From a plasmid: DNA of 64,000 bases. Location of the stretch: the sequence record NZ_CP145111.1, one strand, 5' to 3'. The notes beneath the pieces were generated by a model. It was not told where the DNA came from, did no database searches, and worked only from the letters and a program-made list of their open reading frames with translations. A program made the translations under genes and the position numbers. Positions 1,955 to 63,226 of the stretch are shown here, in pieces; the first letter of the stretch is position 1, and each line of letters opens with the position of its first letter.

Positions 1955-2632
1955 TTAAAGGATTACAATACCCTTTATTTTGAAGCTTTCATTCTCAGTG
2001 ACATCCATTGGCGCATATTCAGGGTTCAGGCTGATCAATTGGCATTCATAACTATTTCGATGGTACTTTTTAACGTATGCTTTTCCATCTACGTATGCAA
2101 TAATAATTTGGCCATTAAATGCTTCTTCGGCATATTTAACAAAAATTATTTGCTGATCAGTAAATAATGGTTTCATTGAATCGCCGTTAACTTGTAAAGC
2201 ATAATCGTAATCAGGAATTATACCGGTGTAATCAACTTCTGTTGTATCATCTTGTAACTCCTCACCAGTACCAGCAGATACGGCGCCGAGAAGCTTAATT
2301 TTAGTCCTAGGTATATGAATGACATTGCTGTTTTGCTCTTTTAGCTGCCTATTAGCATAATCATAGACGTTTTGTTGACGATCTGATGTTAGGTCAGACA
2401 CTATATTGTTTATCTTTTCAGGTAAACTGCCGTTAGAAAGCCCCATTAATTCAGCAAGGGAAACATGCAAAGCGCTTGCAACATGCGCAACCACTTCAAT
2501 TGGTAGTTTTTCTATATCGCCTTTTTCATATCTGAATATTGTAGACCTAGAAACACCAATGGCTTCTGCAAGCACGTCGGCACTTATACCTTGCTGTTTG
2601 CGAATAGCTTTCATTCTTTCACCAACATTCAT
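1955..2632 (-). CDS. phage CI-like repressor (HTH_XRE + S24 LexA-like peptidase)
   Basis: N-terminal HTH GISADVLAEAIGVSRSTIFRYEKG. C-terminal S24 motifs (GDSMKP ... K). Divergently arranged to the cro-like gene. Confidence 0.85.
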   Translation of the reverse strand: MNVGERMKAIRKQQGISADVLAEAIGVSRSTIFRYEKGDIEKLPIEVVAHVASALHVSLAELMGLSNGSLPEKINNIVSDLTSDRQQNVYDYANRQLKEQNSNVIHIPRTKIKLLGAVSAGTGEELQDDTTEVDYTGIIPDYDYALQVNGDSMKPLFTDQQIIFVKYAEEAFNGQIIIAYVDGKAYVKKYHRNSYECQLISLNPEYAPMDVTENESFKIKGIVIL

Positions 2633-2799: not shown

Positions 2800-3048
2800 A
2801 TGTTAGATATTAAAATTGATCGTCTAAAAGGGCTGATGGTTGAACGGCATGTAACTCACGAAGCATTGTCAATGGCTTTGGGAATTAACCGGAGCACTTT
2901 ATCTAGAAAATTAAAAGATGGCGGAAACAAGTTTACAATTGATGAAATAAAAAAAATGCAAAATTTTATTCCTCTTACAAATGAAGAAGTAGTTGACATT
3001 TTTTTAACAGAAAAAGTCGCATTAACGCGACCAAAACAATCAGTATAG
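2800..3048 (+). CDS. Cro-like HTH regulator (82 aa)
   Basis: HTH ALSMALGINRSTLSRKL. First gene of the rightward early operon. RBS GGAAGGAGAG. Confidence 0.7.
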   Translation: MLDIKIDRLKGLMVERHVTHEALSMALGINRSTLSRKLKDGGNKFTIDEIKKMQNFIPLTNEEVVDIFLTEKVALTRPKQSV

Positions 3049-3054
3049 AAAGGA

Positions 3055-3291
3055 ATGATCCACATGACAGATAAAAACGATGCATATAAAAAAATTGCTA
3101 AAGGAGTTGCTTGTCTAAATCAAGTTGAGTGGGGCATGACTAAAAGCATTATTGATCGATTGTTTGAAAAAAAGATCTCCCATATTCAACTTAACGACTC
3201 TGATCTTCAAAAAAATTTGGCAGACTATTTTGAAGATCAGAATAAAAGCGAAATGGACGATCTTTTCAAAAGTTTCCCATCTAAACCATAA
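3055..3291 (+). CDS. hypothetical early protein (78 aa, N-terminus MIHM)
   Basis: Begins inside the conserved block GAAAGGAATGATCCACATGA. Confidence 0.45.
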   Translation: MIHMTDKNDAYKKIAKGVACLNQVEWGMTKSIIDRLFEKKISHIQLNDSDLQKNLADYFEDQNKSEMDDLFKSFPSKP

Positions 3292-3293
3292 AT

Positions 3294-3527
3294 TTAGTGA
3301 TAACTATTTGTTTTGGAAAATTTGAATTCTCTTATTAAATCTTCATCATTCATTTTTTCCAGAAGGTGTTTGATCACAGGAAGTTGGCTTTTTAGAAATG
3401 GAACTAAATTAGAGTCATCCGTAACTTCCGATTCGATTTTGGGATCATGAGTCAGATCCATAAGCATATAACCTGTTAAAGCTGAAATAATAAACTTTCG
3501 ATCAGATTCTAATAAAAATTTTGTCAT
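3294..3527 (-). CDS. hypothetical protein (78 aa)
   Basis: Minus-strand ORF MTKFLLESDRK... with RBS GAGGTG 6 nt before ATG. The longer track ORF to 3626 is an upstream extension. Confidence 0.45.
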   Translation of the reverse strand: MTKFLLESDRKFIISALTGYMLMDLTHDPKIESEVTDDSNLVPFLKSQLPVIKHLLEKMNDEDLIREFKFSKTNSYH

Positions 3528-3576
3528 ATTATTCACCTCGATCAATTGGAATAACTCAAGTATACAACTGAAAGGA

Positions 3577-4293
3577 ATGAACCACATGAATGACTTAGTA
3601 ATCATGAAAGACAAACAAGCAGTCACAAGTAGCTTGCAAGTAGCAGATACCTTTGGTAAGCGACATGATCACGTGGCAGATAGTATTGATAGCTTAAAAA
3701 AAGATGTCCCCAATTTTGGGGAGATGTTTATCGAAACCAATTTACCAGATTCTTATGGTCGGAACCGACGCGGATATTACATGAACCGTGATGGTTTCAC
3801 CTTACTAGCAATGGGATTCACTGGTAGCAAGGCGCTTCAATTCAAACTCCAGTACATTGATGCATTCAACGAGATGGAAGATCAAGTTAAATTTCAAGTT
3901 CCAGCTACGTTGCCAGAAGCATTACGTTTGGCCGCTGACCAAGCAGAGAAAATTTCAGTGCTGCAGCCTAAAGCAGACTACACCGACAAAATGTTAGCTA
4001 ATCCAGGATTGGAAACAACATCGGTAATCGCTAAGAACTACGGCTACTCAACACGTGAGTTTAATAAGCTGCTGCACGGACTGGGCATTCAATACAAGCA
4101 GGGTAAAACATGGCTGTTGTATGCCAAGTATCAGAATCAAGGATACACACACGTTGAGCCTTACGGATACACCAACAGTGATGGCATCGACAAGGTACGC
4201 AACACAATGAAGTGGACGCAAAAAGGGCAACATTTCCTTTATGACTTTCTTGAATCAAAGGGAATCATGCCTAAAGTTGAGCAGACATCATAA
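3577..4293 (+). CDS. phage antirepressor, Rha N-terminal / KilA-C (ANT) C-terminal
   Basis: N-terminus MNDLVIMKDKQAVTSSLQVADTFGKRHDHV is typical of the Rha family. C-terminal ANT-like region. Confidence 0.75.
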   Translation: MNHMNDLVIMKDKQAVTSSLQVADTFGKRHDHVADSIDSLKKDVPNFGEMFIETNLPDSYGRNRRGYYMNRDGFTLLAMGFTGSKALQFKLQYIDAFNEMEDQVKFQVPATLPEALRLAADQAEKISVLQPKADYTDKMLANPGLETTSVIAKNYGYSTREFNKLLHGLGIQYKQGKTWLLYAKYQNQGYTHVEPYGYTNSDGIDKVRNTMKWTQKGQHFLYDFLESKGIMPKVEQTS

Positions 4294-4305
4294 GGAGGTG
4301 AGCTG

Positions 4306-4491
4306 ATGAAGCTACTACGTCATCACATTACGTTGTACTTCAATGAAAAAAACGAGGCAGTTTTTGAATCTTGGATTCAATTGAGCCTGTTCGGCAGAAA
4401 CTTTTACTTTTCTGACGACAAGATTCTACTGAATCCAGAATCTGCAAACGACCTCGTCGTGTTAGAAAGATTAGTTAGAAATGCTAATTAA
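4306..4491 (+). CDS. small protein B1 (61 aa), paralog of 6014-6211
   Basis: Strong RBS AAGGAGGTGA. Shares NEKNEAVFESWIQL with the 6014 ORF. Convergent with 4484-4657, with overlapping stops. Confidence 0.45.
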   Translation: MKLLRHHITLYFNEKNEAVFESWIQLSLFGRNFYFSDDKILLNPESANDLVVLERLVRNAN

Positions 4492-4657
4492 CCTTTTTCC
4501 ACTTGTTGTGAGTTCCCTGACTAGTTGGCGGTAATGTTGAAGTATTGTTCTTCATCGTTGCGTGATGAGGATTAGATACTTTCCCGCCTCGTGGTCCCAC
4601 TTCAATGTATCGACCGGATTTGACATTATCAATACCCGGTTCAAATAGCTTGGCCAT
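4484..4657 (-). CDS. small protein A1 (57 aa), LFEPG..GPRGGK family
   Basis: RBS AAGGAGGTG 6 nt before ATG. Motif MAKLFEPGIDNVKSGRYIEVGPRGGK is shared with the 6208 and 6441 ORFs. Confidence 0.5.
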   Translation of the reverse strand: MAKLFEPGIDNVKSGRYIEVGPRGGKVSNPHHATMKNNTSTLPPTSQGTHNKWKKVN

Positions 4658-4751
4658 AATTTTCACCTCCTTTGTGACAATTATGCCACTTAAAAGGTGG
4701 ATAGAATTATTTTTTAAGCAAATCGAAGTTGAGCAGACAGAATAGAAAGGA

Positions 4752-5072
4752 ATGATCCACATGAATGACAGCTTAAACGAAAGCGTCATTAAAATCTTGT
4801 CTTCAAAAGAAAGAAGCCTTATGACTGCTGGCGTTTTACCTAAGCATGTAACCATCGCGATTGGCACGCTAGAAATTGATTTAACGATTGAAAGGGTTGG
4901 AGAGAGTGTAAATGCTGATTTTGATAATAAAAAAAGGCTCAAGACATTGTCCAAGTCTAATAGCCTTGAAGCTTTTCTAAGTGCCTCAAAATTGATTAAA
5001 GAGCTTTTTAACGATGAACAAATAACTGAAAGGAATGATCCACACGAAAGAACTAATCAAAGTAAACGTTAA
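4752..5072 (+). CDS. hypothetical early protein (MIHM N-terminus)
   Basis: Starts in the conserved block GAAAGGAATGATCCACATGAATGAC. The 3' end runs through the next copy of the block. Confidence 0.4.
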   Translation: MIHMNDSLNESVIKILSSKERSLMTAGVLPKHVTIAIGTLEIDLTIERVGESVNADFDNKKRLKTLSKSNSLEAFLSASKLIKELFNDEQITERNDPHERTNQSKR

Positions 5073-5301
5073 CACCAAAAAATACCTGCTGACTATTGTC
5101 CATCAGGAAATGAGAACTTTTGTTTTTGCAGATAATGTGTTGCTGAATGGTGTGTTTTATATTGATTTTGAAATTAAGCCCCATGATCCTGATGATTACT
5201 CTTCTGAAGCTAAATGTGTTTTGACAGTTGATAAGAACAAGTTTGCTCAGAATCATAAGGGCGCTAGGATTCTGTACGAAGATGGACAGTTATTTCAATA
5301 G
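5035..5301 (+). CDS. hypothetical early protein (88 aa, MIHT N-terminus)
   Basis: Uses the first ATG of a block copy in which the second ATG is mutated to ACG. Confidence 0.4.
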   Translation: MIHTKELIKVNVNTKKYLLTIVHQEMRTFVFADNVLLNGVFYIDFEIKPHDPDDYSSEAKCVLTVDKNKFAQNHKGARILYEDGQLFQ

Positions 5302-5503
5302 GGTCAATGTCAATGTGAGCAATTACGTCACGGCTAAACTGCCATTCTCTCATTGTTTCTTGAGCATCATGCATAGTCTCGAAATGCTGACGGCTAAATG
5401 AAAAACTTTTCCTATGATCATGTATAGCTTCTTTAACCAATGAATCAAAATATTTAAAATCGGCATCTTTAAGCTTTTCTTTGAAGCCATCTTCCAAACT
5501 CAT
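5264..5503 (-). CDS. hypothetical protein (~79 aa)
   Basis: MSLEDGFKEKLKDADFKYF... Convergent with 5035-5301 with a 38-nt 3' overlap. Confidence 0.4.
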   Translation of the reverse strand: MSLEDGFKEKLKDADFKYFDSLVKEAIHDHRKSFSFSRQHFETMHDAQETMREWQFSRDVIAHIDIDPIEITVHLRTES

Positions 5504-5558
5504 TTTTTTGATTTCCCCCCAACTTGATTTGCTTAATCCAATTATACAACTGAAAGGA

Positions 5559-5714
5559 ATGATCCACATGAAGAAACTGATCAACGTTTTATGGGCAATT
5601 GAAAAAGACCTCCATGTTATCGCAAGTAACACGGAAGCCCATAAGAATGGGAACAGCTCAGTAACCATAACCCCAAAAGGAACTATTGTTAGAAGCAAAA
5701 GGATAAATTACTAG
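5559..5714 (+). CDS. small hypothetical protein (51 aa, MIHM N-terminus)
   Basis: Starts in the conserved block. Stop overlaps the stop of 5711-5944 on the tetranucleotide CTAG. Confidence 0.35.
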   Translation: MIHMKKLINVLWAIEKDLHVIASNTEAHKNGNSSVTITPKGTIVRSKRINY

Positions 5715-5944
5715 TTCTGATCCTGAAAATTGTTATTTGGAGAATCGTAATTAGGTGTGAGGGATCCGTCTGCCTGTTTAATCCAATTGAAATTAGAGAG
5801 AAGCGTTGCTTTCCCAGCGGTTTGCTCAATGATTAGGATTAACCCATTGGAGTATTCATAACGTGCCTTGACGAAATCAGCACGTTGCTCAATTACTTTG
5901 AAATCCTTGGGCATTCCTTTTGGAGTATTAACTTTAATTTCCAT
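5711..5944 (-). CDS. hypothetical protein (77 aa)
   Basis: RBS GAGGTG 8 nt before ATG. The start lies within the conserved divergent block. Confidence 0.45.
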   Translation of the reverse strand: MEIKVNTPKGMPKDFKVIEQRADFVKARYEYSNGLILIIEQTAGKATLLSNFNWIKQADGSLTPNYDSPNNNFQDQN

Positions 5945-6013
5945 TATTTTATCACCTCGATTAATTGGAATAACTCAAGTATATAACTGAAAAAAGAAGA
6001 CAGCATAAGGTAG

Positions 6014-6211
6014 ATGATAAAAATGATTCATCATTACATTACAGAATATCGTAACGAAAAAAACGAAGTTGTATTTGAGTCTTGGATTCAACTTAATTTT
6101 TTAGGACTGGTGTGGTGCTATTCCATTAAAAGCTATGTTTTGGATCCTGGAAAAGACAGCTCCGGTGTAATTGAAAGCTTTTTAAAAACCGTGTCATATC
6201 ATGAACGCTAG
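6014..6211 (+). CDS. small protein B2 (65 aa), paralog of 4306-4491
   Basis: Shares NEKNEVVFESWIQL. Convergent with 6208-6393, with stops overlapping on CTAG. Confidence 0.45.
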   Translation: MIKMIHHYITEYRNEKNEVVFESWIQLNFLGLVWCYSIKSYVLDPGKDSSGVIESFLKTVSYHER

Positions 6212-6393
6212 TCTGTTTCCCTGCTAGCATGCTTCCACTTGTTGTGAGTATTGGCACTAACTGGTGGTAAACGATGACCAGATATGCGTATGGTAGCTTG
6301 TCTTGGATTCTTAAGCTTTCCACCTCGAGGGCCAACTTCAAGATATTTACCGATTGGAACGTTGTCAGTACCTGGTTCAAATAGTCTAACCAT
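6208..6393 (-). CDS. small protein A2 (60 aa), LFEPG..GPRGGK family
   Basis: RBS GAGGTG then ATG (MVRLFEPGTDNVPIGKYLEVGPRGGK). Coordinates follow the supplied ORF track frame. Confidence 0.5.
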   Translation of the reverse strand: MVRLFEPGTDNVPIGKYLEVGPRGGKLKNPRQATIRISGHRLPPVSANTHNKWKHASRETD

Positions 6394-6440
6394 ACTATTC
6401 ACCTCGATCAGTTTGAATAATGGCTATCGAACTAGCATAA

Positions 6441-6677
6441 CTATTTCGATTTTATGTGAGGATAAAAGAACTCTACTTTATTTGGATCGAAAATGATGCT
6501 GCTGAGAATATTTCCAGATTCATCGGTGAGATTGGCAGTTATAAGCAAATTGTCTGGTACACGTCCCTTACCGCCTAAAGGGCCTCTGATAAACAATTCG
6601 GTTCCACTATCAAAGTGAATGTTAAAAACGTTGTCGGTCTTTGAAAGAGCATTTTGCAAAATTTCTGAACTATTCAT
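6441..6677 (-). CDS. small protein A3 (78 aa), divergent member of the GP(R/L)GGK family
   Basis: RBS GAGGTG. Shares ELFIRGPLGGKG with A1/A2. Lies in tandem upstream of A2. Confidence 0.5.
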   Translation of the reverse strand: MNSSEILQNALSKTDNVFNIHFDSGTELFIRGPLGGKGRVPDNLLITANLTDESGNILSSIIFDPNKVEFFYPHIKSK

Positions 6678-6791
6678 AAAATCACCTCAAAATTAATTAT
6701 ACGCCTAAAAAGGAATGGTTATATGTAGCTTTAGAATCTTGGTAAATCAATAGGGTTAAGAACGTATCAACGGAAAGGAATGGTTATATAT

Positions 6792-6950
6792 ATGTACGAA
6801 GTTTACCTGCTAGTTGGCTTTCTAGCCTTCTGGCTAACAGTAATTGTATTGATCGCCTCAGCCGGTTATCAGCTACGGAAGTCAGTGGTACGTGCTGGCG
6901 GATGGGTACCATTTTGGAAAAACTTTTTTGGAATGGAGGAAAGCAAATGA
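6792..6950 (+). CDS. small hydrophobic membrane peptide (52 aa)
   Basis: MYEVYLLVGFLAFWLTVIVLIASAGYQL... One TM segment followed by a basic/aromatic tail. Preceded by the block variant GGAAAGGAATGGTTATATATATG. Not in the ORF track (<60 aa). Confidence 0.4.
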   Translation: MYEVYLLVGFLAFWLTVIVLIASAGYQLRKSVVRAGGWVPFWKNFFGMEESK

Positions 6951-7053
6951 AATTATGGCACAAAAAAAGAGTCCTGGGGGACAGCCCAGAACTCACCGAA
7001 AGATTACATGAATCAAGCATTTTCAATATGAATTCTACACTGAAAAAGGGGCG

Positions 7054-8054: not shown

Positions 8055-8738
8055 ATGGAAAAAAGTGAATCAATTAAAAACTTGGCCACCAGCATGGCAC
8101 AATTCCGTAAGAATTTACTCAAAGCACAACCAAGTAAAGATGGAAAAAGTCATTATGGGAACTATGTAACTTTGGAAGACTTAACCGCTGCAGTAGATAG
8201 GGCGCTCCCAGAGTCGTTAGGTTATACGCAGGAAGCGACCAGCGATCCTAATGGTGTCTCTATTACGACTATGCTGTTTGATGCTAGTGGCGAGTACATC
8301 ATTTACAATCCACTTAGCATGCCAGTGCAGCGTAAAGACGCGCAGGCATTCGGCTCTGCTGAAACTTATGCACGACGATATAGTTTATCAGCAGCATTCG
8401 GTGTATCCGCTTCTAAAGATGACGATGGACAACAGGCAACTAAAGCGGCTCCTAACAACCGTACGGCACAACAACCAGCTCATAGGAATAACGGGACACA
8501 ACAAAGCAATCGTCAACCCCTGCCTGTAACTAAACAGCAGGCCACAACACTTAATGGATTGTTTGAGGCAATGAGTAAGGCAGCAAGCGCCCCAATTGAA
8601 GCTGTTAGAAACGGTTATCTGGAAAAATTAAACGTTAGCCAGGTCAAAGATTTGACGCATGATGGCGCTAACCAACTGATCAGCCTAGTGACTGTTCAAT
8701 TAAAAAATCAAAGTGAGAAGGGGAATTCTAATGATTAA
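8055..8738 (+). CDS. ERF-family single-strand annealing protein
   Basis: Motif [18 protein letters not shown] plus a Gln/Asn-rich C-terminus. Gene order ERF-SSB. Confidence 0.6.
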
Positions 8739-39862: not shown

Positions 39863-40090
39863 TTCGTCTGAATTGATTGCGAACTTTAGCATAGAGTCTA
39901 TGACATCAACTATCTTGGATTCTTGTCGATAGGCAATGTCTTTTACTTGCTTGTAAGTGGTTTCTCGGACTTGCACTGGACGAGTACTTTCTTTTTTTTG
40001 CTTAAATGGGCTTTCGTTATCGCCTAGTTGTTGGTTAGCCTGCTTTGCTAACTTGCCTAAAAAGTCATTAGCCATTTTCCATTTCTCCAA
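39848..40090 (-). CDS. small ParB/ParG-like partition partner (80 aa)
   Basis: Overlaps the 3' end of the ParA gene. Basic N-terminus. Confidence 0.45.
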   Translation of the reverse strand: MEKWKMANDFLGKLAKQANQQLGDNESPFKQKKESTRPVQVRETTYKQVKDIAYRQESKIVDVIDSMLKFAINSDEFNNK

Positions 40091-40856
40091 TCCGCTTTAA
40101 TTGTTCTTTTAGTACCATATCGTACATTCCAATTGCTCGTTTATCCCAATGGTCTTCATTCTTAATTCCTTCATTTGAAAAAAGCTTAACTCGCTCTTGT
40201 TGCCAAATTCTGTTAGCAAATACAGCATCTCCAAATGAATCTACGGCGGCTTGCGTTATTTCTTTATCAACTTTGGCGTCCTTTTTAACGAGATAAAGAA
40301 TAACACCGGCAACGTTAAATGATGCTTGATAATCGCTCTTTAATTGAAACATGTACTGAGCAGTTTTAAGAACGGATGTGTAAGCTTGTTTTTGAGTTTG
40401 TAATACTAATGATATATAGTCACTGGCTAAGATGGCGTTGTTAGTAAAAATTGAAAGTGTTGGTGGAACATCGATGATAATGTAATCAAATTGTTCCTTA
40501 AATTTTTTAATCAGCTCGCTTAGTATAAGCATGCGATCATGAGATTTAATCTTTTCAGCTTTACCGGGCCATAAGCTTAGTTCCCAATCAGCTGGAATTA
40601 TTGAAATATTATCAGTCAGAGCAACTACTGATTTGCTTAGATCAAAATTTAGAAGCCCGTTATAAAGAGATACAGTTGGTTCGATTTCTTTGTTAAAAGT
40701 AGCTTTCATAATTTCAGTTGCGTTAGCCTGCGGATCAAGGTCAATTAGCAAAACCTTGTTTTTATTAGAGCCTAATAAATATGTGTTCATGACGCTCAAT
40801 GTGGTCTTACCTACGCCACCTTTAAAGTTGAAATGTAATAACGTTTTAGCGCTCAT
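40068..40856 (-). CDS. parA: ParA-family partition ATPase
   Basis: Deviant Walker A NFKGGVGKTT. 262 aa. Confidence 0.85.
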   Translation of the reverse strand: MSAKTLLHFNFKGGVGKTTLSVMNTYLLGSNKNKVLLIDLDPQANATEIMKATFNKEIEPTVSLYNGLLNFDLSKSVVALTDNISIIPADWELSLWPGKAEKIKSHDRMLILSELIKKFKEQFDYIIIDVPPTLSIFTNNAILASDYISLVLQTQKQAYTSVLKTAQYMFQLKSDYQASFNVAGVILYLVKKDAKVDKEITQAAVDSFGDAVFANRIWQQERVKLFSNEGIKNEDHWDKRAIGMYDMVLKEQLKRIGEMENG

Positions 40857-41039: not shown

Positions 41040-41590
41040 AAAACACCCACCAACGGGAATTGGTGAGCGCCACAAAAGTCTATTGAATTTATAGAGTATT
41101 ATATCATGGCCGGTGCGATTTTTAAAGCCCTAGGGGACAAGCTGGGGTCTAAATCCAAGGGGACACGTTTGCCAGTGCGACTTCAATAAGTCTGGCTATA
41201 CCACAACAAGGTCATCTGTACGGCTGGGTGGTGAATGGTGAGCGCGACCATTAACGGCGCGGGTGGTAAAACGAAGCTTCGGCTTGGTGCCACTGATTAG
41301 TTGGTGATCGAACAAAAATAAATACGTATCATCAACGCCTTCTAGGGCGTTTTTTAGTAGGCTAAACCGAAAACGTAGGTTTATAATGAGTGGTGGTAGC
41401 AATACCGCAATTGTACAGACAAGCGACGGGCGTTAACGACCGACGAACTAAGGGGAAACTTTTAGTAGTAGAATTGTACTCTGGTTCAGTTATTCCAAAT
41501 AGCTGATTCCAGGGAACAATTCTGCGCTCAAAACGTCACTCCCTCTAAACTGAATGGAAAACCGTAACCCGTCAAGTCAAAAACAAAAGA
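41040..41590 (+). ncRNA. conserved noncoding, probably structured element (copy A)
   Basis: Near-identical copy at 58280-58817. No credible ORF. Internal intrinsic terminator AACGCCttctaGGGCGTTTTTT (~41335-41358). Multiple hairpins. Confidence 0.35.
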
Positions 41591-42002
41591 TAATTAAATG
41601 GGGAGTGTTTATTTTTGGGGACATGGCTGTGGTATTTTGGTATAACTATTGTTTTTGTAGCATATTTTGTAATACTTGCTCGTAATAAACGGCTAACTAA
41701 GGTTAATCTAGTTTTATTTTTTATAAGCTATTTGATTATGATTTTTGCGCAAGTTATTGCTAGTCATTTTTGAGATACTTGGTTAATGATAAGTGGGAAT
41801 GGTCTAGGGAGAAACTAAGAAAATTTCACAAAGACGGTTTACCCAATTAAAGCCAAGCTGCAACCTATACCACTTCTTTTTTGGACAAGTTCACAATCAA
41901 AAAATAACGGATCGTTGTTTTATCAGGGCATGAAGGGGTTACTTGGGATAAGCCCCATTATGTAAAGTAAGAATCGGTATAGCTAATAGATGAGGTGATC
42001 AC

Positions 42003-42206
42003 ATGATTAATCGGGTTAATATTGCAGTTTTAATTCCATTCTTAATTTTAATTGGGGTTATTTGTCTAATTGTGGGATTCTGGCATGATTTTAAGGACTT
42101 AACCGTTATTCAAAAGACCGGTATTATCTTGTGTGTCATTGGCTACGTCGTTCCTGTTGTGTTAAGTCAGGTAATGAGAATTAAGAGCGTAAAATATCTT
42201 GTGTAA
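42003..42206 (+). CDS. small two-TM membrane protein (67 aa), C-terminus ends inside the IS256 terminal repeat
   Basis: MINRVNIAVLIPFLILIGVICLIVGFW... The homologous copy at ~59300-59515 has lost the ATG. Confidence 0.35.
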   Translation: MINRVNIAVLIPFLILIGVICLIVGFWHDFKDLTVIQKTGIILCVIGYVVPVVLSQVMRIKSVKYLV

Positions 42207-43513
42207 ATGCATAAAAGATTTCTGAATTGTATAGAAATAGGGAATGCCTTCCCTTATGATATTTAGTAACCACAGAAAACATCACAGGAGGCATTCCCCA
42301 TCAATGAACTTACCACAGAAATTATCGCTGCACTAGCCCAAAAGCAAGATTTGGACGAAATTTTTCGTCACCACCTCGAAATTGCGATTAACCAGCTGCT
42401 TCAAACCGAATTGGCAGAGTTTTTGGGTTACGAACGCTACTCATACGCTGGGATTAACACTGGTAATAACCGCAACGGCAGTTATGAGCGCTCGTTTGAT
42501 ACGAAGTACGGCCAACTTAACTTAACCATTCCTCGAGATCGCAATGGCCGGTTTGAAAATCATACCTTGCCAGCCTACGGTCGGCACAGTGATAATTTAG
42601 AAACAACGGTCATTCAGTTGTATACCAAGGGAATTACCACTGCTGAAATTGCCGAACTCATTGAGAAAATGTACGGTGCTCACTACTCCAAAGCCACGGT
42701 TTCCAATATGACTAAAGCCGTCAATGAACAGGTTCAAGCTTTCCAGCAACGTCGACTGGCTTCACAATATGCGGCCATCTTCTTAGATGCCACTTACTTG
42801 CCGTTAAAGCGGGATACCGTTCAAAAAGAAGCCGTTCATATTGCGATTGGCATTCGTCCAGATGGTACGAAAGAAGTGCTGAACTACCAAGTGGCGCCAA
42901 CGGAATCGACTGGAATCTGGACTGAACTGCTGGGAACCTTGATCAAGCAGGGCGTTAAAGATGTGCTGTTGTTTGTGGCCGATGGGTTAGTTGGTTTGGA
43001 TGAAGGCTTGAATCGGCATTTCCCTAAAGCCAAACGACAACGTTGCCTGGTTCATGTTGGGCGGAATCTGATGAACAAAGTTCGCGTAAAAGACCGCAAG
43101 GCCGTGATCAGTGACTTTAAACAAGTTCATCGGGCCGCCAACCGTGAAGCAGCCAAACTGAAACTGAATGAGTTCGCCAACAACTGGCATCAGACCTATC
43201 CCAAATTAATCAAAGATCTGCTTAAAATGCCGAATTTACTCACTTTCATGGACTTTCCACCAGCTATCCGGCAATCACTATACTCCACTAACCTGATTGA
43301 GAACTTTAATAAGCATCTCAAGCGCACCACCCACCACAAAGAACAATTTCCAACGGAAGATTCACTGGATCGCTTCCTGGTTTCTCAGTTTAATGTTTAT
43401 AACGAGAAGTCTCTGAAGCGGATCCACCGAGGGTTCAAAGGACTCCAGGACACCTTGGAAGCATCATTTATTTAAGTTAGATACATATTATATGTACGAA
43501 GGCATTTCATTTA
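42197..43513 (+). mobile_element. IS256-family insertion sequence, copy A
   Basis: Terminal inverted repeats ATCTTGTGTAAATG at 42197-42212 and 43499-43513. Mutator-type transposase inside. Confidence 0.7.
42304..43475 (+). CDS. IS256-family transposase (start codon ATG mutated to ATC relative to copy B)
   Basis: Identical to 59609-60784 except for a few SNPs. Only a TTG at 42351 is available as a start. Confidence 0.75.
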
Positions 43514-43586
43514 CACAAGATTCTTGACGCTACCCTATTTTTTTTGTTACAGTCAAAATAAAGCCAGCGAAAGCGAGGAGGACGTC

Positions 43587-44036
43587 ATGAAACAATACAC
43601 GAAATTTTTACTGATGATTCTTGTCTCTACAGTTATTATGTATGGGTTAATGTACCTTAATGTGTTCCAATTAGATCATATTTTTCTAAGCCAAACGCGA
43701 CTGTATATGGCGCTAATTATGGGCGCCACCATGGCCATTGTAATGCTGTTATTCATGTGGTCAATGTACCAGAATAAACGTTTGAACCGCCTGATCCTAC
43801 TTGGTAGTGCGGTGATATTTGCTGGCTCGCTTTATCTAGTTCGTAGCCAAGCGACCGTGCACGATGCAGCTTGGATGCAAGAAATGATCCCCCATCACTC
43901 GACCGCGATTCTAACCAGTGAACGCGCGCAACTCAGCGATCCGGAAGTCAAAGCCCTCGCACAGAAGATCGCTAAAACGCAACGTGAAGAGATCACGGAG
44001 ATGAAACGATTATTGAAAAAAGTTGCCGATCAATAG
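43587..44036 (+). CDS. DUF305-family membrane-anchored protein (possible metal homeostasis)
   Basis: N-terminal TM helices plus HDAAWMQEMIPHHSTAI motif. Promoter-like TTGACG-N17-TACAGT upstream. Confidence 0.55.
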   Translation: MKQYTKFLLMILVSTVIMYGLMYLNVFQLDHIFLSQTRLYMALIMGATMAIVMLLFMWSMYQNKRLNRLILLGSAVIFAGSLYLVRSQATVHDAAWMQEMIPHHSTAILTSERAQLSDPEVKALAQKIAKTQREEITEMKRLLKKVADQ

Positions 44037-44093
44037 CTGATAAAAAATAAGGAAGTTGACCAATCGGGCCAACTTCCTTATTTTTTAGGCTTA

Positions 44094-44660
44094 TTAATCA
44101 ACCGCAACGATCTGACCAGTCGCGATCGGTAACGTAACGTGTGCATCATAGTGGCCGACCATTCCGGCAACACTTTCTGGCAAGTGCACGTTAGCAGTCA
44201 CGCCGTGAATATAGATCACGCGTTTTTCAAGGTGTAATTCCGACTCACCAAATGCTTTTTTAAAGTTAGCTTGTAGCTCACTTAATGGGACTTTCTTCTC
44301 ATAAGTAAAATCACCGTGCTCATCCGCAGTTGGATAGCGGTCATGGGGAATATCCATATGTTCTGGGGCATCGTCAAAAGGTACCATCGTCGTCCCCGAA
44401 ACGGCTTCAGTCTCCATGAGATCAACAAAACCATCTGCATTCGCATCCTGTGCAGCCGTTGCGATCAACGCCTGCTTACCATCCGGAAAGCCATGAAAAT
44501 GTTCCCAATGCTGCATATTGGCCGGCGTGTTGTGCATTGTGATCTTAATCGTTAATTCATCATCTGCAATTGCGAACGTCGCTTCGCCATAAGCAGCCGT
44601 TCCAATCTTATCCGCATTCAATGGTACAATTTGTGCTGCATAGTGTGTGGTCATCAGCAA
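44094..44660 (-). CDS. His-rich hypothetical protein (188 aa), possible metal-binding
   Basis: Many His: HWEHFHGF, HMDIPHDRYPTADEHGDF, IHGVTANVHLP. Convergent with the DUF305 gene. Confidence 0.45.
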   Translation of the reverse strand: MLMTTHYAAQIVPLNADKIGTAAYGEATFAIADDELTIKITMHNTPANMQHWEHFHGFPDGKQALIATAAQDANADGFVDLMETEAVSGTTMVPFDDAPEHMDIPHDRYPTADEHGDFTYEKKVPLSELQANFKKAFGESELHLEKRVIYIHGVTANVHLPESVAGMVGHYDAHVTLPIATGQIVAVD

Positions 44661-44881
44661 AACCTCCTTGTATTACCTGAACAACGATCAATAGCTACGC
44701 CGCTAGTATAACACAGTTCAGCGCTTGCAAGTACCTGATTAGGCCAAGCAAGCAGTTATAGCATATTTTTAATTATGCTATGTGTAAAGTACCTACGGCG
44801 TAAAAATAGCGCAATTCAGCACGTCCTTAAAAGAACGAGTTTCCTTGCGCTTACATAAAAGCGGACAACTTTTATTCGATA

Positions 44882-45917
44882 TGGCAAATTACAAGTTTAA
44901 TCCGAACAAGCCCGGAATCTTTCAATGGCAGTCTGTTGATGATGTATTTTTAATGGTCGTTGATTAATTAGTTCAAGTGCTGCTAGGATCTCATCAGTCG
45001 TTACTTGGCTAAAATTGGTCTTTTTCGGGAAGAACCAGCGTAACCGTCTATTAAAATATTCATTGGAACCTCGCTCCCATGGTGAATATGGATGGCAAAA
45101 ATAAACTTTGATCTGATAATCCTGTTCTAAGGCCTGATAATTGGCAAACTCTTTACCATGATCAACAGTAATGGATTTTACTTGGGGACCGAAGGCCCCC
45201 ATAAACTTGCCAAAGGCGGTGTTTAGAGCCTTAGCCGTTCTATTAGGGGCTTTGATGGCCCATAGAAGTCGGGTCTTACGTTCTACGAATGTAACCAGAC
45301 ATGATCGTGACTCACTTCGACTAGAAAGCACCGTATCTACTTCCCAATGACCAAAAGCTAACCGTTGATTAACAGTTGTTGGCCGTTGTTCGATGGAAGT
45401 CCCACTTGTAAATTTCCCACGATTTTCGCTCACTCGGTGCTGGCGGACATTCCGATTGGGTAGATCAGTCAATTTGAAGGGGAGCCAGCCACGATTAAGC
45501 CAATTATAAATTGACGCAGTGCTCAAGTTATAAGCGGCCGCAATGGTTTCTGGTGACCAGGTTAATCGTAAGTGATTGGTAATTAAAGTCGCTAATGCTG
45601 CCGTCAGCATCGAACGACGACCGCAATTCCGCCTTTTGCGATCTGCATCTTGCTGAGCTAATTCTGGATCATAAGGTTTAACCCGGTCCAACTCATAGCT
45701 AATCGTAGCTTTGGCGACGCCTAAGGCGTCAGCCATTACTTGGTAAGATTTATTCCCCTCATTGACCAGTTGTGCTAGTGCGCCACGTTGAAAACGTGAT
45801 AAAGTAGATGTACCCAAAGTAATCACTCCCTATATTGGTTGGAATTAGCTACTACCATTGTAAGTGATTGCTTTGGGCTTTTTAATTTCTGTTCGGATTA
45901 ATTATAGAATTTGCCAA
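44882..45917 (-). mobile_element. IS30-family insertion sequence, copy A (~1036 bp)
   Basis: Inverted repeats TGGCAAATT...TAATCCGAACA at both ends. Confidence 0.75.
44897..45826 (-). CDS. IS30-family transposase
   Basis: 309 aa. N-terminal HTH. DDE region HWEVDTV...DHGKEF. Confidence 0.85.
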   Translation of the reverse strand: MITLGTSTLSRFQRGALAQLVNEGNKSYQVMADALGVAKATISYELDRVKPYDPELAQQDADRKRRNCGRRSMLTAALATLITNHLRLTWSPETIAAAYNLSTASIYNWLNRGWLPFKLTDLPNRNVRQHRVSENRGKFTSGTSIEQRPTTVNQRLAFGHWEVDTVLSSRSESRSCLVTFVERKTRLLWAIKAPNRTAKALNTAFGKFMGAFGPQVKSITVDHGKEFANYQALEQDYQIKVYFCHPYSPWERGSNEYFNRRLRWFFPKKTNFSQVTTDEILAALELINQRPLKIHHQQTAIERFRACSD

Positions 45918-58279: not shown

Positions 58280-58817
58280 ACCCACCAACAGCCATTGGTG
58301 AGCGCCACAAAAAAGTCATCATTGTTTAATGACTATTATATCATGGCCGGTGCGATTTTTAAAGCCCTAGGGGACAAGCTGGGGTCTAAATCCAAGGGGA
58401 CACGTTTGCCAGTGCGACTTCAATAAGTCTGGCTATACCACAACAAGGCTATCTGTACGGCTGGGTGGTGAATGGTGAGCGCGACCATTAACGGCGCGGG
58501 TGGTAAAACGAAGCTTCGGCTTGGTGCCATTGATTAGTTGGTGATCGAACAAAAATAAATACGTATCATCAACGCCTGCTAGGGCGTTTTTAAGTAGGTT
58601 AAACCGAAAACGTAGGTTTATAATGAGTGGTGGTAGCAATACCGCAATTGTACAGACAAGTGACGGGCGTTAACGACCGACGAACTAAGGGGAAACTTTT
58701 AGTAGTAGAATTGTACTCTGGTTCAGTTATTTCAAATAGCTGTTTCCAGGGAACAATTCTGCGCTCAAAACGTCACTCCCTCTAAACTGAATGGAAAACC
58801 GTAACCCGTCAAGTCAA
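58280..58817 (+). ncRNA. conserved noncoding, probably structured element (copy B)
   Basis: ~98% identical to 41040-41580. Its SNPs fall as nonsynonymous changes in the only ORF, arguing against a coding function. Confidence 0.35.
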
Positions 58818-59132: not shown

Positions 59133-59505
59133 ATTCACAAAGTGAGTTTACTGATTTTTGGGGGATTTTTCATCTAGACCACTCCTCTCCCGTCAAATTT
59201 CACAAAGGAAAAATAACGGATCGTTGTTTTATCAGGGAGTGAGGGGGTTACTTGGGATAAGCCCCATTATGTGAAGTAGAAATTGGTATAGCTAGTTGAT
59301 GAGGTGATCATACGATTAATTGGGTTAATATTGCAGTTTTAATTCCATTCTTAATTTTAATTGGTGTTATTTGTCTAATTGTGGGATTCTGGCATGATTT
59401 TAAGGACTTAACCGTTATTCAAAAGACCGGTATTATCTTGTGTGTCATTGGCTACGTCGTTCCTGTTGTGTTAAATCAGGTAATGAGAATTAAGAGCGTA
59501 AAATA

Positions 59506-60822
59506 TCTTGTGTAAATGCATAAAAGATTTCTGAATTGTATAGAAATAGGGAATGCCTTCCCTTATGATATTTAGTAACCACAGAAAACATCACAGGAGG
59601 CATTCCCCATGAATGAACTTACCACAGAAATTATCGCTGCACTAGCCCAAAAGCAAGATTTGGACGAAGTTTTTCGTCACCACCTCGAAATTGCGATTAA
59701 CCAGCTGCTTCAAACCGAATTGGCAGAGTTTTTGGGTTACGAACGCTACTCATACGCTGGGATTAACACTGGTAATAACCGCAACGGCAGTTATGAGCGC
59801 TCGTTTGATACGAAGTACGGCCAACTTAACTTAACCATTCCTCGAGATCGCAATGGCCGGTTTGAAAATCATACCTTGCCAGCCTACGGTCGGCACAGTG
59901 ATAATTTAGAAACAACGGTCATTCAGTTGTATACCAAGGGAATTACCACTGCTGAAATTGCCGAACTCATTGAGAAAATGTACGGTGCTCACTACTCCAA
60001 AGCCACGGTTTCCAACATGACTAAAGCCGTCAATGAACAGGTTCAAGCTTTCCAGCAACGTCGACTGGCTTCACAATATGCGGCCATCTTCTTAGATGCC
60101 ACTTACTTGCCGTTAAAGCGGGATACCGTTCAAAAAGAAGCCGTTCATATTGCGATTGGCATTCGTCCAGATGGTACGAAAGAAGTGCTGAACTACCAAG
60201 TGGCGCCAACGGAATCGACTGGAATCTGGACTGAACTGCTGGGAACCTTGATCAAGCAGGGCGTTAAAGATGTGCTGTTGTTTGTGGCCGATGGGTTAGT
60301 TGGTTTGGATGAAGGCTTGAATCGGCATTTCCCTAAAGCCAAACGACAACGTTGCCTGGTTCATGTTGGGCGGAATCTGATGAACAAAGTTCGCGTAAAA
60401 GACCGCAAGGCCGTGATCAGTGACTTTAAACAAGTTCATCGGGCCGCCAACCGTGAAGCAGCCAAACTGAAACTGAATGAGTTCGCCAACAACTGGCATC
60501 AGACCTATCCCAAATTAATCAAAGATCTGCTTAAAATGCCGAATTTACTCACTTTCATGGACTTTCCACCAGCTATCCGGCAATCACTATACTCCACTAA
60601 CCTGATTGAGAACTTTAATAAGCATCTCAAGCGCACCACCCACCACAAAGAACAATTTCCAACGGAAGATTCACTGGATCGCTTCCTGGTTTCTCAGTTT
60701 AATGTTTATAACGAGAAGTCTCTGAAGCGGATCCACCGAGGGTTCAAAGGACTCCAGGACACCTTGGAAGCATCATTTATTTAAGTTAGATACATATTAT
60801 ATGTACGAAGGCATTTCATTTA
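59506..60822 (+). mobile_element. IS256-family insertion sequence, copy B
   Basis: Same inverted repeats as copy A. Intact ATG. Confidence 0.7.
59609..60784 (+). CDS. IS256-family transposase (intact)
   Basis: 391 aa. Full N-terminus MNELTTEIIAALAQKQDLDE. Confidence 0.85.
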   Translation: MNELTTEIIAALAQKQDLDEVFRHHLEIAINQLLQTELAEFLGYERYSYAGINTGNNRNGSYERSFDTKYGQLNLTIPRDRNGRFENHTLPAYGRHSDNLETTVIQLYTKGITTAEIAELIEKMYGAHYSKATVSNMTKAVNEQVQAFQQRRLASQYAAIFLDATYLPLKRDTVQKEAVHIAIGIRPDGTKEVLNYQVAPTESTGIWTELLGTLIKQGVKDVLLFVADGLVGLDEGLNRHFPKAKRQRCLVHVGRNLMNKVRVKDRKAVISDFKQVHRAANREAAKLKLNEFANNWHQTYPKLIKDLLKMPNLLTFMDFPPAIRQSLYSTNLIENFNKHLKRTTHHKEQFPTEDSLDRFLVSQFNVYNEKSLKRIHRGFKGLQDTLEASFI

Positions 60823-60895
60823 CACAAGATTCTTGACGCTACCCTATTTTTTTTGTTACAGTCAAAATAAAGCCAGCGAAAGCGAGGAGGACGTC

Positions 60896-61345
60896 ATGAA
60901 ACAATACACGAAATTTTTACTGATGATTCTTGTCTCTACAGTTATTATGTATGGGTTAATGTACCTTAATGTGTTCCAATTAGATCATATTTTTCTAAGC
61001 CAAACGCGACTGTATATGGCGCTAATTATGGGCGCCACCATGGCCATTGTAATGCTGTTATTCATGTGGTCAATGTACCAGAATAAACGTTTGAACCGCC
61101 TGATCCTACTTGGTAGTGCGGTGATATTTGCTGGCTCGCTTTATCTAGTTCGTAGCCAAGCGACCGTGCACGATGCAGCTTGGATGCAAGAAATGATCCC
61201 CCATCACTCGACCGCGATTCTAACCAGTGAACGCGCGCAACTCAGCGATCCGGAAGTCAAAGCCCTCGCACAGAAGATCGCTAAAACGCAACGTGAAGAG
61301 ATCACGGAGATGAAACGATTATTGAAAAAAGTTGCCGATCAATAG
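60896..61345 (+). CDS. DUF305-family protein (copy B)
   Basis: Identical to 43587-44036. Confidence 0.55.
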   Translation: MKQYTKFLLMILVSTVIMYGLMYLNVFQLDHIFLSQTRLYMALIMGATMAIVMLLFMWSMYQNKRLNRLILLGSAVIFAGSLYLVRSQATVHDAAWMQEMIPHHSTAILTSERAQLSDPEVKALAQKIAKTQREEITEMKRLLKKVADQ

Positions 61346-61402
61346 CTGATAAAAAATAAGGAAGTTGACCAATCGGGCCAACTTCCTTATTTTTTAGGCT
61401 TA

Positions 61403-61969
61403 TTAATCAACCGCAACGATCTGACCAGTCGCGATCGGTAACGTAACGTGTGCATCATAGTGGCCGACCATTCCGGCAACACTTTCTGGCAAGTGCACGT
61501 TAGCAGTCACGCCGTGAATATAGATCACGCGTTTTTCAAGGTGTAATTCCGACTCACCAAATGCTTTTTTAAAGTTAGCTTGTAGCTCACTTAATGGGAC
61601 TTTCTTCTCATAAGTAAAATCACCGTGCTCATCCGCAGTTGGATAGCGGTCATGGGGAATATCCATATGTTCTGGGGCATCGTCAAAAGGTACCATCGTC
61701 GTCCCCGAAACGGCTTCAGTCTCCATGAGATCAACAAAACCATCTGCATTCGCATCCTGTGCAGCCGTTGCGATCAACGCCTGCTTACCATCCGGAAAGC
61801 CATGAAAATGTTCCCAATGCTGCATATTGGCCGGCGTGTTGTGCATTGTGATCTTAATCGTTAATTCATCATCTGCAATTGCGAACGTCGCTTCGCCATA
61901 AGCAGCCGTTCCAATCTTATCCGCATTCAATGGTACAATTTGTGCTGCATAGTGTGTGGTCATCAGCAA
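61403..61969 (-). CDS. His-rich hypothetical protein (copy B)
   Basis: Identical to 44094-44660. Confidence 0.45.
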   Translation of the reverse strand: MLMTTHYAAQIVPLNADKIGTAAYGEATFAIADDELTIKITMHNTPANMQHWEHFHGFPDGKQALIATAAQDANADGFVDLMETEAVSGTTMVPFDDAPEHMDIPHDRYPTADEHGDFTYEKKVPLSELQANFKKAFGESELHLEKRVIYIHGVTANVHLPESVAGMVGHYDAHVTLPIATGQIVAVD

Positions 61970-62190
61970 AACCTCCTTGTATTACCTGAACAACGATCAA
62001 TAGCTACGCCGCTAGTATAACACAGTTCAGCGCTTGCAAGTACCTGATTAGGCCAAGCAAGCAGTTATAGCATATTTTTAATTATGCTATGTGTAAAGTA
62101 CCTACGGCGTAAAAATAGCGCAATTCAGCACGTCCTTAAAAGAACGAGTTTCCTTGCGCTTACATAAAAGCGGACAACTTTTATTCGATA

Positions 62191-63226
62191 TGGCAAATTA
62201 CAAGTTTAATCCGAACAAGCCCGGAATCTTTCAATGGCAGTCTGTTGATGATGTATTTTTAATGGTCGTTGATTAATTAGTTCAAGTGCTGCTAGGATCT
62301 CATCAGTCGTTACTTGGCTAAAATTGGTCTTTTTCGGGAAGAACCAGCGTAACCGTCTATTAAAATATTCATTGGAACCTCGCTCCCATGGTGAATATGG
62401 ATGGCAAAAATAAACTTTGATCTGATAATCCTGTTCTAAGGCCTGATAATTGGCAAACTCTTTACCATGATCAACAGTAATGGATTTTACTTGGGGACCG
62501 AAGGCCCCCATAAACTTGCCAAAGGCGGTGTTTAGAGCCTTAGCCGTTCTATTAGGGGCTTTGATGGCCCATAGAAGTCGGGTCTTACGTTCTACGAATG
62601 TAACCAGACATGATCGTGACTCACTTCGACTAGAAAGCACCGTATCTACTTCCCAATGACCAAAAGCTAACCGTTGATTAACAGTTGTTGGCCGTTGTTC
62701 GATGGAAGTCCCACTTGTAAATTTCCCACGATTTTCGCTCACTCGGTGCTGGCGGACATTCCGATTGGGTAGATCAGTCAATTTGAAGGGGAGCCAGCCA
62801 CGATTAAGCCAATTATAAATTGACGCAGTGCTCAAGTTATAAGCGGCCGCAATGGTTTCTGGTGACCAGGTTAATCGTAAGTGATTGGTAATTAAAGTCG
62901 CTAATGCTGCCGTCAGCATCGAACGACGACCGCAATTCCGCCTTTTGCGATCTGCATCTTGCTGAGCTAATTCTGGATCATAAGGTTTAACCCGGTCCAA
63001 CTCATAGCTAATCGTAGCTTTGGCGACGCCTAAGGCGTCAGCCATTACTTGGTAAGATTTATTCCCCTCATTGACCAGTTGTGCTAGTGCGCCACGTTGA
63101 AAACGTGATAAAGTAGATGTACCCAAAGTAATCACTCCCTATATTGGTTGGAATTAGCTACTACCATTGTAAGTGATTGCTTTGGGCTTTTTAATTTCTG
63201 TTCGGATTAATTATAGAATTTGCCAA
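62191..63226 (-). mobile_element. IS30-family insertion sequence, copy B
   Basis: Identical to 44882-45917. Confidence 0.75.
62206..63135 (-). CDS. IS30-family transposase (copy B)
   Basis: Identical to 44897-45826. Confidence 0.85.
   Translation of the reverse strand: MITLGTSTLSRFQRGALAQLVNEGNKSYQVMADALGVAKATISYELDRVKPYDPELAQQDADRKRRNCGRRSMLTAALATLITNHLRLTWSPETIAAAYNLSTASIYNWLNRGWLPFKLTDLPNRNVRQHRVSENRGKFTSGTSIEQRPTTVNQRLAFGHWEVDTVLSSRSESRSCLVTFVERKTRLLWAIKAPNRTAKALNTAFGKFMGAFGPQVKSITVDHGKEFANYQALEQDYQIKVYFCHPYSPWERGSNEYFNRRLRWFFPKKTNFSQVTTDEILAALELINQRPLKIHHQQTAIERFRACSD

Follow-up and report, generated by a model that had tools for sequence, protein, structure and literature searches.

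Two diverged copies of a probable phage accessory cassette of convergent small genes, one of them YjzC-like, in the early region of a prophage related to Lactobacillus phage Lb

Antisense control in the switch regions of temperate phages is known from sar and ant of phage P22, from oop and cII of phage lambda and from the convergent promoters pR and pL of coliphage 186. Phage operons can also harbour morons, independent transcription units which have been inserted into them (Cumby et al., 'The moron comes of age', PMC3594210). Prophages of Firmicutes carry type I toxin-antitoxin systems such as bsrG/SR4 and txpA/RatA, in which a small hydrophobic membrane toxin is combined with a non-coding antisense RNA, while the genes of type II systems are co-directional and co-transcribed and the toxin is not kept without its antitoxin. 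The YjzC-like protein Rv1954A of Mycobacterium tuberculosis is encoded by the first gene of the HigB-HigA-chaperone operon (PMC3912914), a link that is one of association only. Here we analyse a stretch of 64,000 nucleotides (nt) from a plasmid (sequence record NZ_CP145111.1; this whole stretch is the window in what follows), in which a small plus-strand gene, A, and a YjzC-like minus-strand gene, B, meet tail to tail at two places. With high confidence, we regard these as two diverged copies of a conserved and mobile two-gene convergent phage accessory cassette.

A temperate siphovirus-type prophage, kin of Lactobacillus (Levilactobacillus brevis) phage Lb, fills the first ~39 kb of the window, and both A/B pairs are located between its antirepressor gene and an Erf-type recombination module, in a run of small genes. 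Two paralogous pairs had been reported there in a preliminary description of the sequence, and the open reading frames (ORFs) are confirmed: A1 and A2 have 44% identity over 52 amino acids (E 2e-15), B1 and B2 61% over 54 amino acids (E 2e-25), and the shared motifs are present. A1 (4306-4491, plus strand, 61 amino acids), the first gene after the antirepressor on the lytic (cro/ant) strand, matches the PHROG group phrog_10400 (E 3.3e-8) and an A-family hidden Markov model (HMM) built in this analysis (E 2e-16), while A2 (6023-6211, plus strand, 62 amino acids) matches phrog_10400 with E 1.8e-12. The ORF of A2 opens at 6014 and had been read from there as a gene of 65 amino acids; the ORF holds, but its true start is most likely the second ATG at 6023, because all five close homologues begin with MIHHY or MLHHY, four of the five being 62 amino acids long. 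As claimed earlier for their ribosome-binding sites, a Shine-Dalgarno (SD)-like sequence precedes all four genes, namely AAGGAGGTGA, strong and 6 nt before the ATG, in A1, the weaker AAGGTAG in A2, AAAGGAGGTGA in B1 and GAGGTGA in B2.

The phrog_10400 profile is only 39 residues long. When 1.84 billion representative proteins were searched by profile, 92 clusters of A emerged, all with an N-terminal core of ~38-40 residues, M-x-HHYITKY-x(6)-YAE(A/S)W(I/L)Q(I/L)NLFG-x(3)-CFSK(R/K), beyond which C-terminal tails extend over 0 to ~90 residues. An AlphaFold model of A2, with a mean predicted local distance difference test (pLDDT) score of 77, places three strands in residues 2-40 and a helix at the C-terminus; the core is predicted to be a three-stranded beta-meander. 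Divergence of the C-termini, which had been described for both families, applies to A beyond the first ~38-40 residues and only marginally to B, the copies of which differ after KWK. The A tails have diverged because the A frame, past the 38-amino-acid core, runs through the terminator region of B to the next stop codon, and the stop reached is very often the YTAR which also holds the stop codon of B. One public A protein of 101 amino acids (P0031) ends in ...PPRGPTSTY..., the antisense translation of the YjzC motif GPRGG, so that the A frame there is open across the whole B gene. Within A1 (4343-4392), the codons for FESWIQ make up an inverted repeat with perfect 7-bp arms, TTGAATC-TTG-GATTCAA, and an A7/T7 run arises from those for NEKNE; read on the minus strand, this is a hairpin followed by U7 (dG -12.9), yet no better than in shuffled sequences (z -1.3).

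Neither family had been recognised initially. B nevertheless belongs to a named family, YjzC-like (PF14168), the gathering score of which is 25 bits and is passed by both B proteins: B1 (4484-4657, minus strand, 57 amino acids, isoelectric point (pI) 10.2) scores 34.3 bits (E 2.9e-8, profile positions 2-55 of 55) and B2 (6208-6393, minus strand, 61 amino acids, pI 10.6) 35.9 bits (E 9.3e-9, positions 5-54 of 55). Both match phrog_3202 as well (E 2e-16 and 3.3e-15 respectively), and B2 is 97% identical to a 'YjzC family protein' of L. brevis. The HMM check proposed earlier therefore places both genes in catalogued groups, B in PF14168 and phrog_3202 and A in phrog_10400, but both PHROG groups are annotated 'unknown function'. 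The B proteins are basic and strongly hydrophilic, and the phage B clade bears the signature KPGTDN...EVGPRGGKV...GDRLPPT. No hydrophobic segment occurs in either A or B proteins, the highest Kyte-Doolittle(19) value among them being 1.13 (A2). No PDB sequence was matched by the B profile.

The association of the two genes was assessed in loci fetched by one partner alone, the other partner being sought with HMMs built from sequences of this analysis. Three motif-seeded samples were used: 80 loci from IMG/VR retrieved with B, as many retrieved with A, and 78 species-representative genomes retrieved with B. In IMG/VR, A was detected on 412 contigs and phage-type B on 175. An A-like ORF follows B immediately and convergently, within -8 to +36 nt, in 72 of the 80 B-fetched viral loci, including loci in which the public gene calls had skipped A; the stop codons overlap by 4 nt in 60 and by 8 nt in 4 of these, and the rest are 0-36 nt apart. 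A large Streptococcus mitis-group set has a B protein ~60% identical to those of the window and an A protein of 47 amino acids. Starting from A, B is present in 40 of the 80 loci (drawn from the 412 matched contigs), and, with one genome per species, B is accompanied by A in 29 of 78 genomes from several orders of Bacillota, among them Streptococcus, Levilactobacillus, Lapidilactobacillus, Solobacterium, Acetobacterium, Virgibacillus, Allofustis, Dorea, Porcincola, Clostridium and Stomatobaculum. In Levilactobacillus strain DSM 100836, contig28 has a 100% match to B1. As to the question raised in the preliminary description, A and B do not always occur convergently together, although they do so in most B-fetched viral loci.

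Pairing is kept down to ~45% protein identity and across several bacterial orders in otherwise highly mosaic genomes, the cassette being present in prophages of mitis-group streptococci (S. mitis, S. oralis, S. pseudopneumoniae), S. suis, Clostridium tetani and lactobacilli. In 98 unique pairs, the matrices of pairwise identity of A and of B are correlated with a Mantel r of 0.84, a value reached by none of 2000 permutations. The recurrence of the convergent pairing, its co-divergence and its presence also among the head genes of a clostridial phage (see below) indicate that A and B form a two-gene module and are not neighbours by chance, in line with the first interpretation of the locus. The association of A and B is strong, old and inherited as a unit; it is obligatory for neither gene. 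Streptococcus phage Spn1, which a DNA match had suggested as a further carrier, was discarded after translation gave unrelated ORFs.

Diversifying selection, which had been proposed for the pair, does not agree with the substitution pattern. The median ratio of nonsynonymous to synonymous substitution rates (dN/dS) is 0.27 for A and for B alike, and over 90% of the comparisons give values below 0.5. A and B are real protein genes, and their conserved parts are under purifying, not diversifying, selection.

Some YjzC-like genes were encountered outside such pairs or outside public annotation. Floricoccus genomes (L227, L240; 3001-3321) contain a chromosomal YjzC-like ORF of ~106 amino acids (E 3e-49), the score of which, about twice that of a single domain, suggests a tandem-duplicated fusion, and which is convergent with a lipoprotein gene resembling, as judged by eye, a substrate-binding protein. 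In Streptococcus phage Clyde (L269), the YjzC-like gene at 4001-4156 is unannotated in the public record, where the short opposite-strand ORF CDS0025 is annotated instead. The A gene is also missed by public gene calls in several L. brevis records.

The orientation of the cassette follows a rule. B is co-oriented with the S24/HTH repressor and the integrase in every locus where these were called, while the flanking genes are mostly on the A strand (upstream of A in 20 of 27 and beyond B in 21 of 28 lineage clusters at 80% identity). In the window, the lysogeny strand is set by a cI-like repressor gene (1955-2632, minus strand; Pfam HTH_3 and Peptidase_S24) and is common to B1, B2 and an ORF of 78 amino acids, whereas the early lytic strand, common to A1 and A2, is set by the Rha/KilAC antirepressor gene (3577-4293, plus strand; Pfam Phage_pRha and ANT/KilAC), which has an 88% DNA match to the anti-repressor gene of phage Lb.

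B appears to be equipped with transcription signals of its own. Promoter-like -10 elements with a -35 element or an extended TG are found in 77 of 160 unique upstream regions of B, compared to 20.8 +/- 4.6 in shuffled sequences, and are often of the extended TGnTATAAT type, although these are consensus matches only. The same holds for the two candidates in the window on the minus strand, an extended -10 element, TGGCATAAT (4680-4688), which is promoter-like and lies ~25 nt upstream of the SD sequence of B1, and TATAAT (6701-6696), a perfect -10 match before the unit of the 78-amino-acid ORF and B2. A generic sigma-70 scan of the window gave 21 matches against 19.3 in shuffles and hence no enrichment. 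Downstream, a hairpin with a T-run is present on the B strand in 20 of 28 lineage clusters, mostly 26-50 nt past the B stop codon, and terminator-like sites follow 75% of the unique pairs on the B strand compared to 29% on the A strand. Where the stop codons are ~30-44 nt apart the hairpin occupies the gap; where they overlap it is located within the C-terminal tail of A. With its own promoter-like -10 element and putative terminator, typical across relatives, B therefore looks like an autonomous moron-type unit that is antisense within a lytic operon.

The cassette is also not confined to early regions. In Clostridium tetani phage phiCT9441A, the pair gp42 (plus strand) and gp43 (minus strand, annotated as 'YjzC family protein') is flanked by the genes for the minor head protein and the scaffold, A being co-oriented with the late operon and B opposed to it. 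Phage Lb, the closest cultured relative of the window prophage, has a different gene after the antirepressor, and is devoid of a YjzC gene and of the cassette. The head-module site and this absence indicate that the cassette behaves like a horizontally spread moron, with two genes. For two further loci, a right-hand neighbour as terminase (L114) and a head protein (L187) had been considered; Pfam confirmed neither assignment, and these claims were dropped.

The tail-to-tail junction itself is less informative than it seems. In all pairs, A and B converge and their 3' ends overlap or abut, and the gap is -4 in 96 of 161 pairs. As stated in the preliminary description, the overlaps in the window range from 4 to 8 nt, with 8 nt between A1 and B1 (4484-4491) and the tetranucleotide CTAG between A2 and B2 (6208-6211). 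CTAG is likewise shared by an unrelated pair between them, but it has no special role, accounting for only 8 of the 96 overlaps of 4 nt, besides CTAA (59), TTAA (17) and TTAG (12), that is any YTAR. This unrelated pair consists of 5559-5714 (plus strand, phrog_37331) and 5711-5944 (minus strand), overlapping at 5711-5714, and serves as a control; the 5559 gene matches phage Lb gp45 over its first 27 amino acids only, and gp45 faces a different gene of 261 amino acids. Other convergent pairs with 4-nt overlaps are a DUF2188 gene with a partner of 67 amino acids (L018-L024) and a pair of 51 and 69 amino acids (L002), the latter unrelated to the 5559/5711 pair. These control pairs do not retain their partners, in the case of 5559/5711 even between close relatives. 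With unrelated pairs of the same geometry in the same region and in relatives, and with unstable partners, the tail-to-tail arrangement is generic and is not evidence of coupling. The distinctive trait of A and B is the conservation of the partner, not the geometry.

The ORF of 78 amino acids (6441-6677, minus strand), in tandem upstream of B2 and probably co-transcribed with it, had been regarded as a third paralog with a GP(R/L)GGK motif. This candidate was rejected, as the BLASTP similarity is limited to 15 residues (E 0.026), hhalign gives a probability of 2.5% against a B profile of 16 sequences, and the ORF has no match in Pfam, PHROG, NCBIfam or PADLOC. An ORF of 78 amino acids is found at the same position upstream of B also in another locus (L021).

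A genuine functional link of some kind between A and B is quite possible, although we would stop just short of calling it probable. The reading that we favour, as the best inference, is an antagonistic protein pair across the boundary of lysogeny and lysis, to which convergent transcription adds interference. B would be produced in the lysogen and A once the lytic operon fires, whereby the lytic transcript would read antisense through B, and one product would neutralise or counteract the other. B might be an exclusion or immunity factor which the prophage expresses and which A antagonises in the lytic phase; alternatively, A might be a host-directed lytic effector from which B protects the lysogen. 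In either case, convergent transcription would add mutual interference, and two diverged pairs in one phage would represent two specificities. Antagonism accommodates solitary A genes such as those of Skunavirus 56301 and Listeria phage B054, solitary chromosomal B genes and the presence of two diverged pairs in one phage.

The more specific proposal that A and B form a previously unrecognised antagonist pair widespread in Bacillota, with B as exclusion or immunity factor or antidote and A as lytic counter-factor or weapon, is tentative and on present evidence unlikely. If it were true, a solitary A as in Lactococcus Skunavirus 56301 would be a counter-defence gene or an unopposed effector, a solitary chromosomal YjzC an orphan immunity gene, and a first function would be assigned to the YjzC family, to which Rv1954A from the HigBA-TAC operon of M. 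tuberculosis also belongs. Both families are already catalogued in Pfam and PHROG; the pairing, the orientation rule and the moron-like signals appear to be undescribed in the literature searched, which contained no mention of A/B pairing, only incidental mentions of YjzC and nothing on function. Independent of the mechanism, the pairing offers a testable entry to the roles of tiny antisense genes in the early regions of temperate phages and of bacterial YjzC-like proteins, with genes small enough for synthesis and with natural controls in the two diverged pairs of one phage, in solitary A and in solitary B.

A number of observations weigh against an antagonist pair. A is alone in the other 40 of the 80 A-fetched viral loci, with same-strand genes following it, as in Lactococcus phage 56301, classified as Skunavirus, and in Listeria phage B054. 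B is alone in 49 of the 78 genomes (Oscillospiraceae, Spirochaetes, Acidobacteria, Chloroflexi and others), and no recurrent substitute partner was found in these 49. Decayed remnants of the partner are rare in the solitary cases (2 of 42 and 1 of 58). Frequent solitary occurrence with few remnants indicates that neither gene strictly needs the other, and does not support an obligate dependence of the toxin-antitoxin type. On neighbour-joining trees, which are noisy because the sequences are short, the paired or unpaired state has changed at least 13-15 times and is clustered, 28-39 changes being expected at random. The Mantel correlation could merely reflect physical linkage, and inter-protein mutual information, tried as evidence for contacts, exceeds that of permuted pairings but is confounded by phylogeny at an effective sequence number (Neff) of 34 and was not retained. 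Structure prediction for B from an alignment of seven sequences was uninformative (pLDDT 49). NCBIfam and PADLOC gave no match for A or B (PADLOC-DB 2.0 searched with A1, A2, B1, B2 and the 78-amino-acid ORF at E <= 0.1). Finally, the candidate terminators of B1 and B2 in the window, situated within A1 and A2, are no better than shuffles (z -1.3 and -0.8); in these two lineages the terminator is weak or displaced, and the transcripts of B1 and B2 probably continue into antisense A.

The main rival is physical hitchhiking, according to which A and B are unrelated accessory genes with independent functions, a B moron having landed behind A once in an ancestral phage. A and B would be carried together because mosaic recombination breaks at gene starts, where the conserved junction repeats are found, and not at the tail-to-tail junction, which, with a gap of -4 in more than half of the pairs, offers no intergenic DNA for recombination. 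We consider this explanation plausible but rather doubtful. It is in agreement with the common solitary occurrence of either gene and with the sharing of the geometry by unrelated pairs, and the clustered pairing state fits a single origin followed by losses. It is less easily reconciled with the survival of the pair at such low protein identity over several orders in highly mosaic genomes and with the 5559/5711 pair, of the same geometry, not having kept its partner even between close relatives; nor would hitchhiking lead one to expect that the pair travels as a unit into the head genes of phiCT9441A or that one phage retains two diverged copies.

Less well supported, and in our view improbable, is a cis-antisense RNA device in which the identity of the proteins is secondary. 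Here, the promoter of B would oppose the lytic operon and the B transcript would overlap the 3' part of the A mRNA, and by interference and processing of the RNA duplex the device would damp leaky early (ant/cro-proximal) transcription in the lysogen and silence B upon induction. The strong amino-acid conservation of both proteins (dN/dS 0.27) is not required by a role of the RNA only. The overlapping or abutting 3' ends of all pairs and the position of the B terminator inside the 3' coding tail of A or at its end would suit such a device; B ending 26-50 nt past its stop codon in most lineages, however, leaves only a short overlap with the A mRNA, while the weak terminators of the two copies in the window imply that transcription continues into A and ant. 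B points to the cro/ant side in early-region contexts, where the switch regions of P22, lambda and coliphage 186 provide general precedents, but the cassette is also found among late head genes with no lysis-lysogeny switch nearby, and A keeps B although other antisense genes could serve.

A classical toxin-antitoxin (addiction) module of type II or type I, which small, paired and duplicated genes on a mobile element, a convergent 3' overlap recalling Bacillus prophage type I systems such as bsrG/SR4 (PMC3834814) and the YjzC-like gene heading the M. tuberculosis HigBA-chaperone operon (PMC3912914) might bring to mind, is very improbable, as neither protein has a hydrophobic segment, both partners are protein-coding and under purifying selection, each gene often occurs alone, which makes such a dependency unlikely, no toxin or antitoxin family of Pfam, NCBIfam or PADLOC is matched, and genes that are not co-directional and form no operon cannot be co-regulated by an antitoxin-repressor. 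With respect to the preliminary description as a whole, its observation is partly confirmed and its interpretation partly supported.

The surroundings of the cassette are rich in small alternating units. The DNA match with phage Lb amounts to 88% across the antirepressor gene and parts of the early region, and the Erf-type module begins at ~8 kb, where an ORF of 227 amino acids (8055-8738) matches gp40 of phage Lb, annotated as Erf-like, in length and position. Within 3055-6950, from the cro side to the replication genes, the strand alternates five times, with plus-strand blocks at 3055-3291, 3577-4491, 4752-5301, 5559-5714 and 6023-6211 followed by minus-strand blocks at 3294-3533, 4484-4657, 5264-5506, 5711-5944 and 6208-6677 respectively. 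An initiation block, GAAAGGAATGATCCACATG, composed of an SD sequence, 9 nt and ATG and 19-27 nt long, precedes five different plus-strand genes inside 2.5 kb; a repeat search located its copies at 3041-3067, 3563-3589, 4738-4764, 5021-5047 and 5545-5571 on the plus strand. It may be a conserved junction for the shuffling of cassettes, and, given its repetition, the second ATG is the probable start of several of these genes (e.g. 3586, 4761 and 5568).

A second repeat, CATAYTATTCACCTCGATCA(A/G)TT(G/T)GAATAA, marks the start (SD sequence and ATG) of three different minus-strand genes, with copies at 3525-3554, 5944-5973 and 6391-6420 (minus strand; families D1 and D4), those at 3525 and 5944 running on into the identical divergent intergenic sequence ATTGGAATAACTCAAGTATA. 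Between the minus-strand ORF of 78 amino acids and a divergent plus-strand ORF of 56 amino acids at 6780, a direct repeat, AAAGGAATGGTTATAT(G/A)TA, occurs at 6709-6727 and 6774-6792, 65 nt apart, and could be an operator-like or ribosome-binding-site-like element. The strongest terminator-like site of the region, at 6969-6994 on the minus strand, has a 10-bp stem with six GC pairs followed by T7 and would halt leftward transcription arriving from the replication module. Towards the right, the window has the look of a plasmid or of DNA rich in insertion sequences, not of a phage. This part contains a ParA-like ATPase gene (40068-40856) and direct repeats at 41088-41387 and 58325-58624 (97% identical) and at 41865-42164 and 59174-59473 (91% identical), 17.2-17.3 kb apart, which are followed by matching ORF sets at 42351-45826 and 59609-63135. 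The former set encodes an IS256-type Transposase_mut protein, a DUF305 protein, an ORF of 188 amino acids and an rve integrase-core protein.

Compared with the systems described so far, the cassette shares individual features with several of them. Both window pairs match the PHROG orthologous groups phrog_10400 and phrog_3202. With members of the YjzC family such as YjzC of Bacillus subtilis and Rv1954A, B1 and B2 have in common a score above the gathering threshold and a similar size of ~55-60 amino acids, but the phage B clade is usually coupled to A, whereas the members in Floricoccus, Oscillospiraceae and Acidobacteria are solitary. Type I toxin-antitoxin systems of Firmicute prophages resemble the cassette in their convergent small genes with overlapping 3' ends and in their prophage location, while A and B are both conserved soluble proteins, each viable alone. 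From type II systems the pair differs by its convergent genes, which are often solitary, and by the absence of a match to toxin-antitoxin families. As in P22 sar/ant, lambda oop/cII and the pR/pL arrangement of phage 186, a transcription unit close to the antirepressor or cro runs leftward against the early rightward operon; those controls are short non-coding RNAs or face-to-face promoters and sit in switch regions, whereas the opposing unit of the cassette encodes a conserved protein and the cassette occurs outside switch regions as well. B is also akin to phage morons in being small, in typically having, across relatives, its own promoter-like element and terminator-like site, in lying opposed to the host operon, and in belonging to a cassette that is variably present among close relatives and inserted at early and head module sites. 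Morons are usually single units, however, while B is accompanied by one specific partner, which lies on the operon strand.

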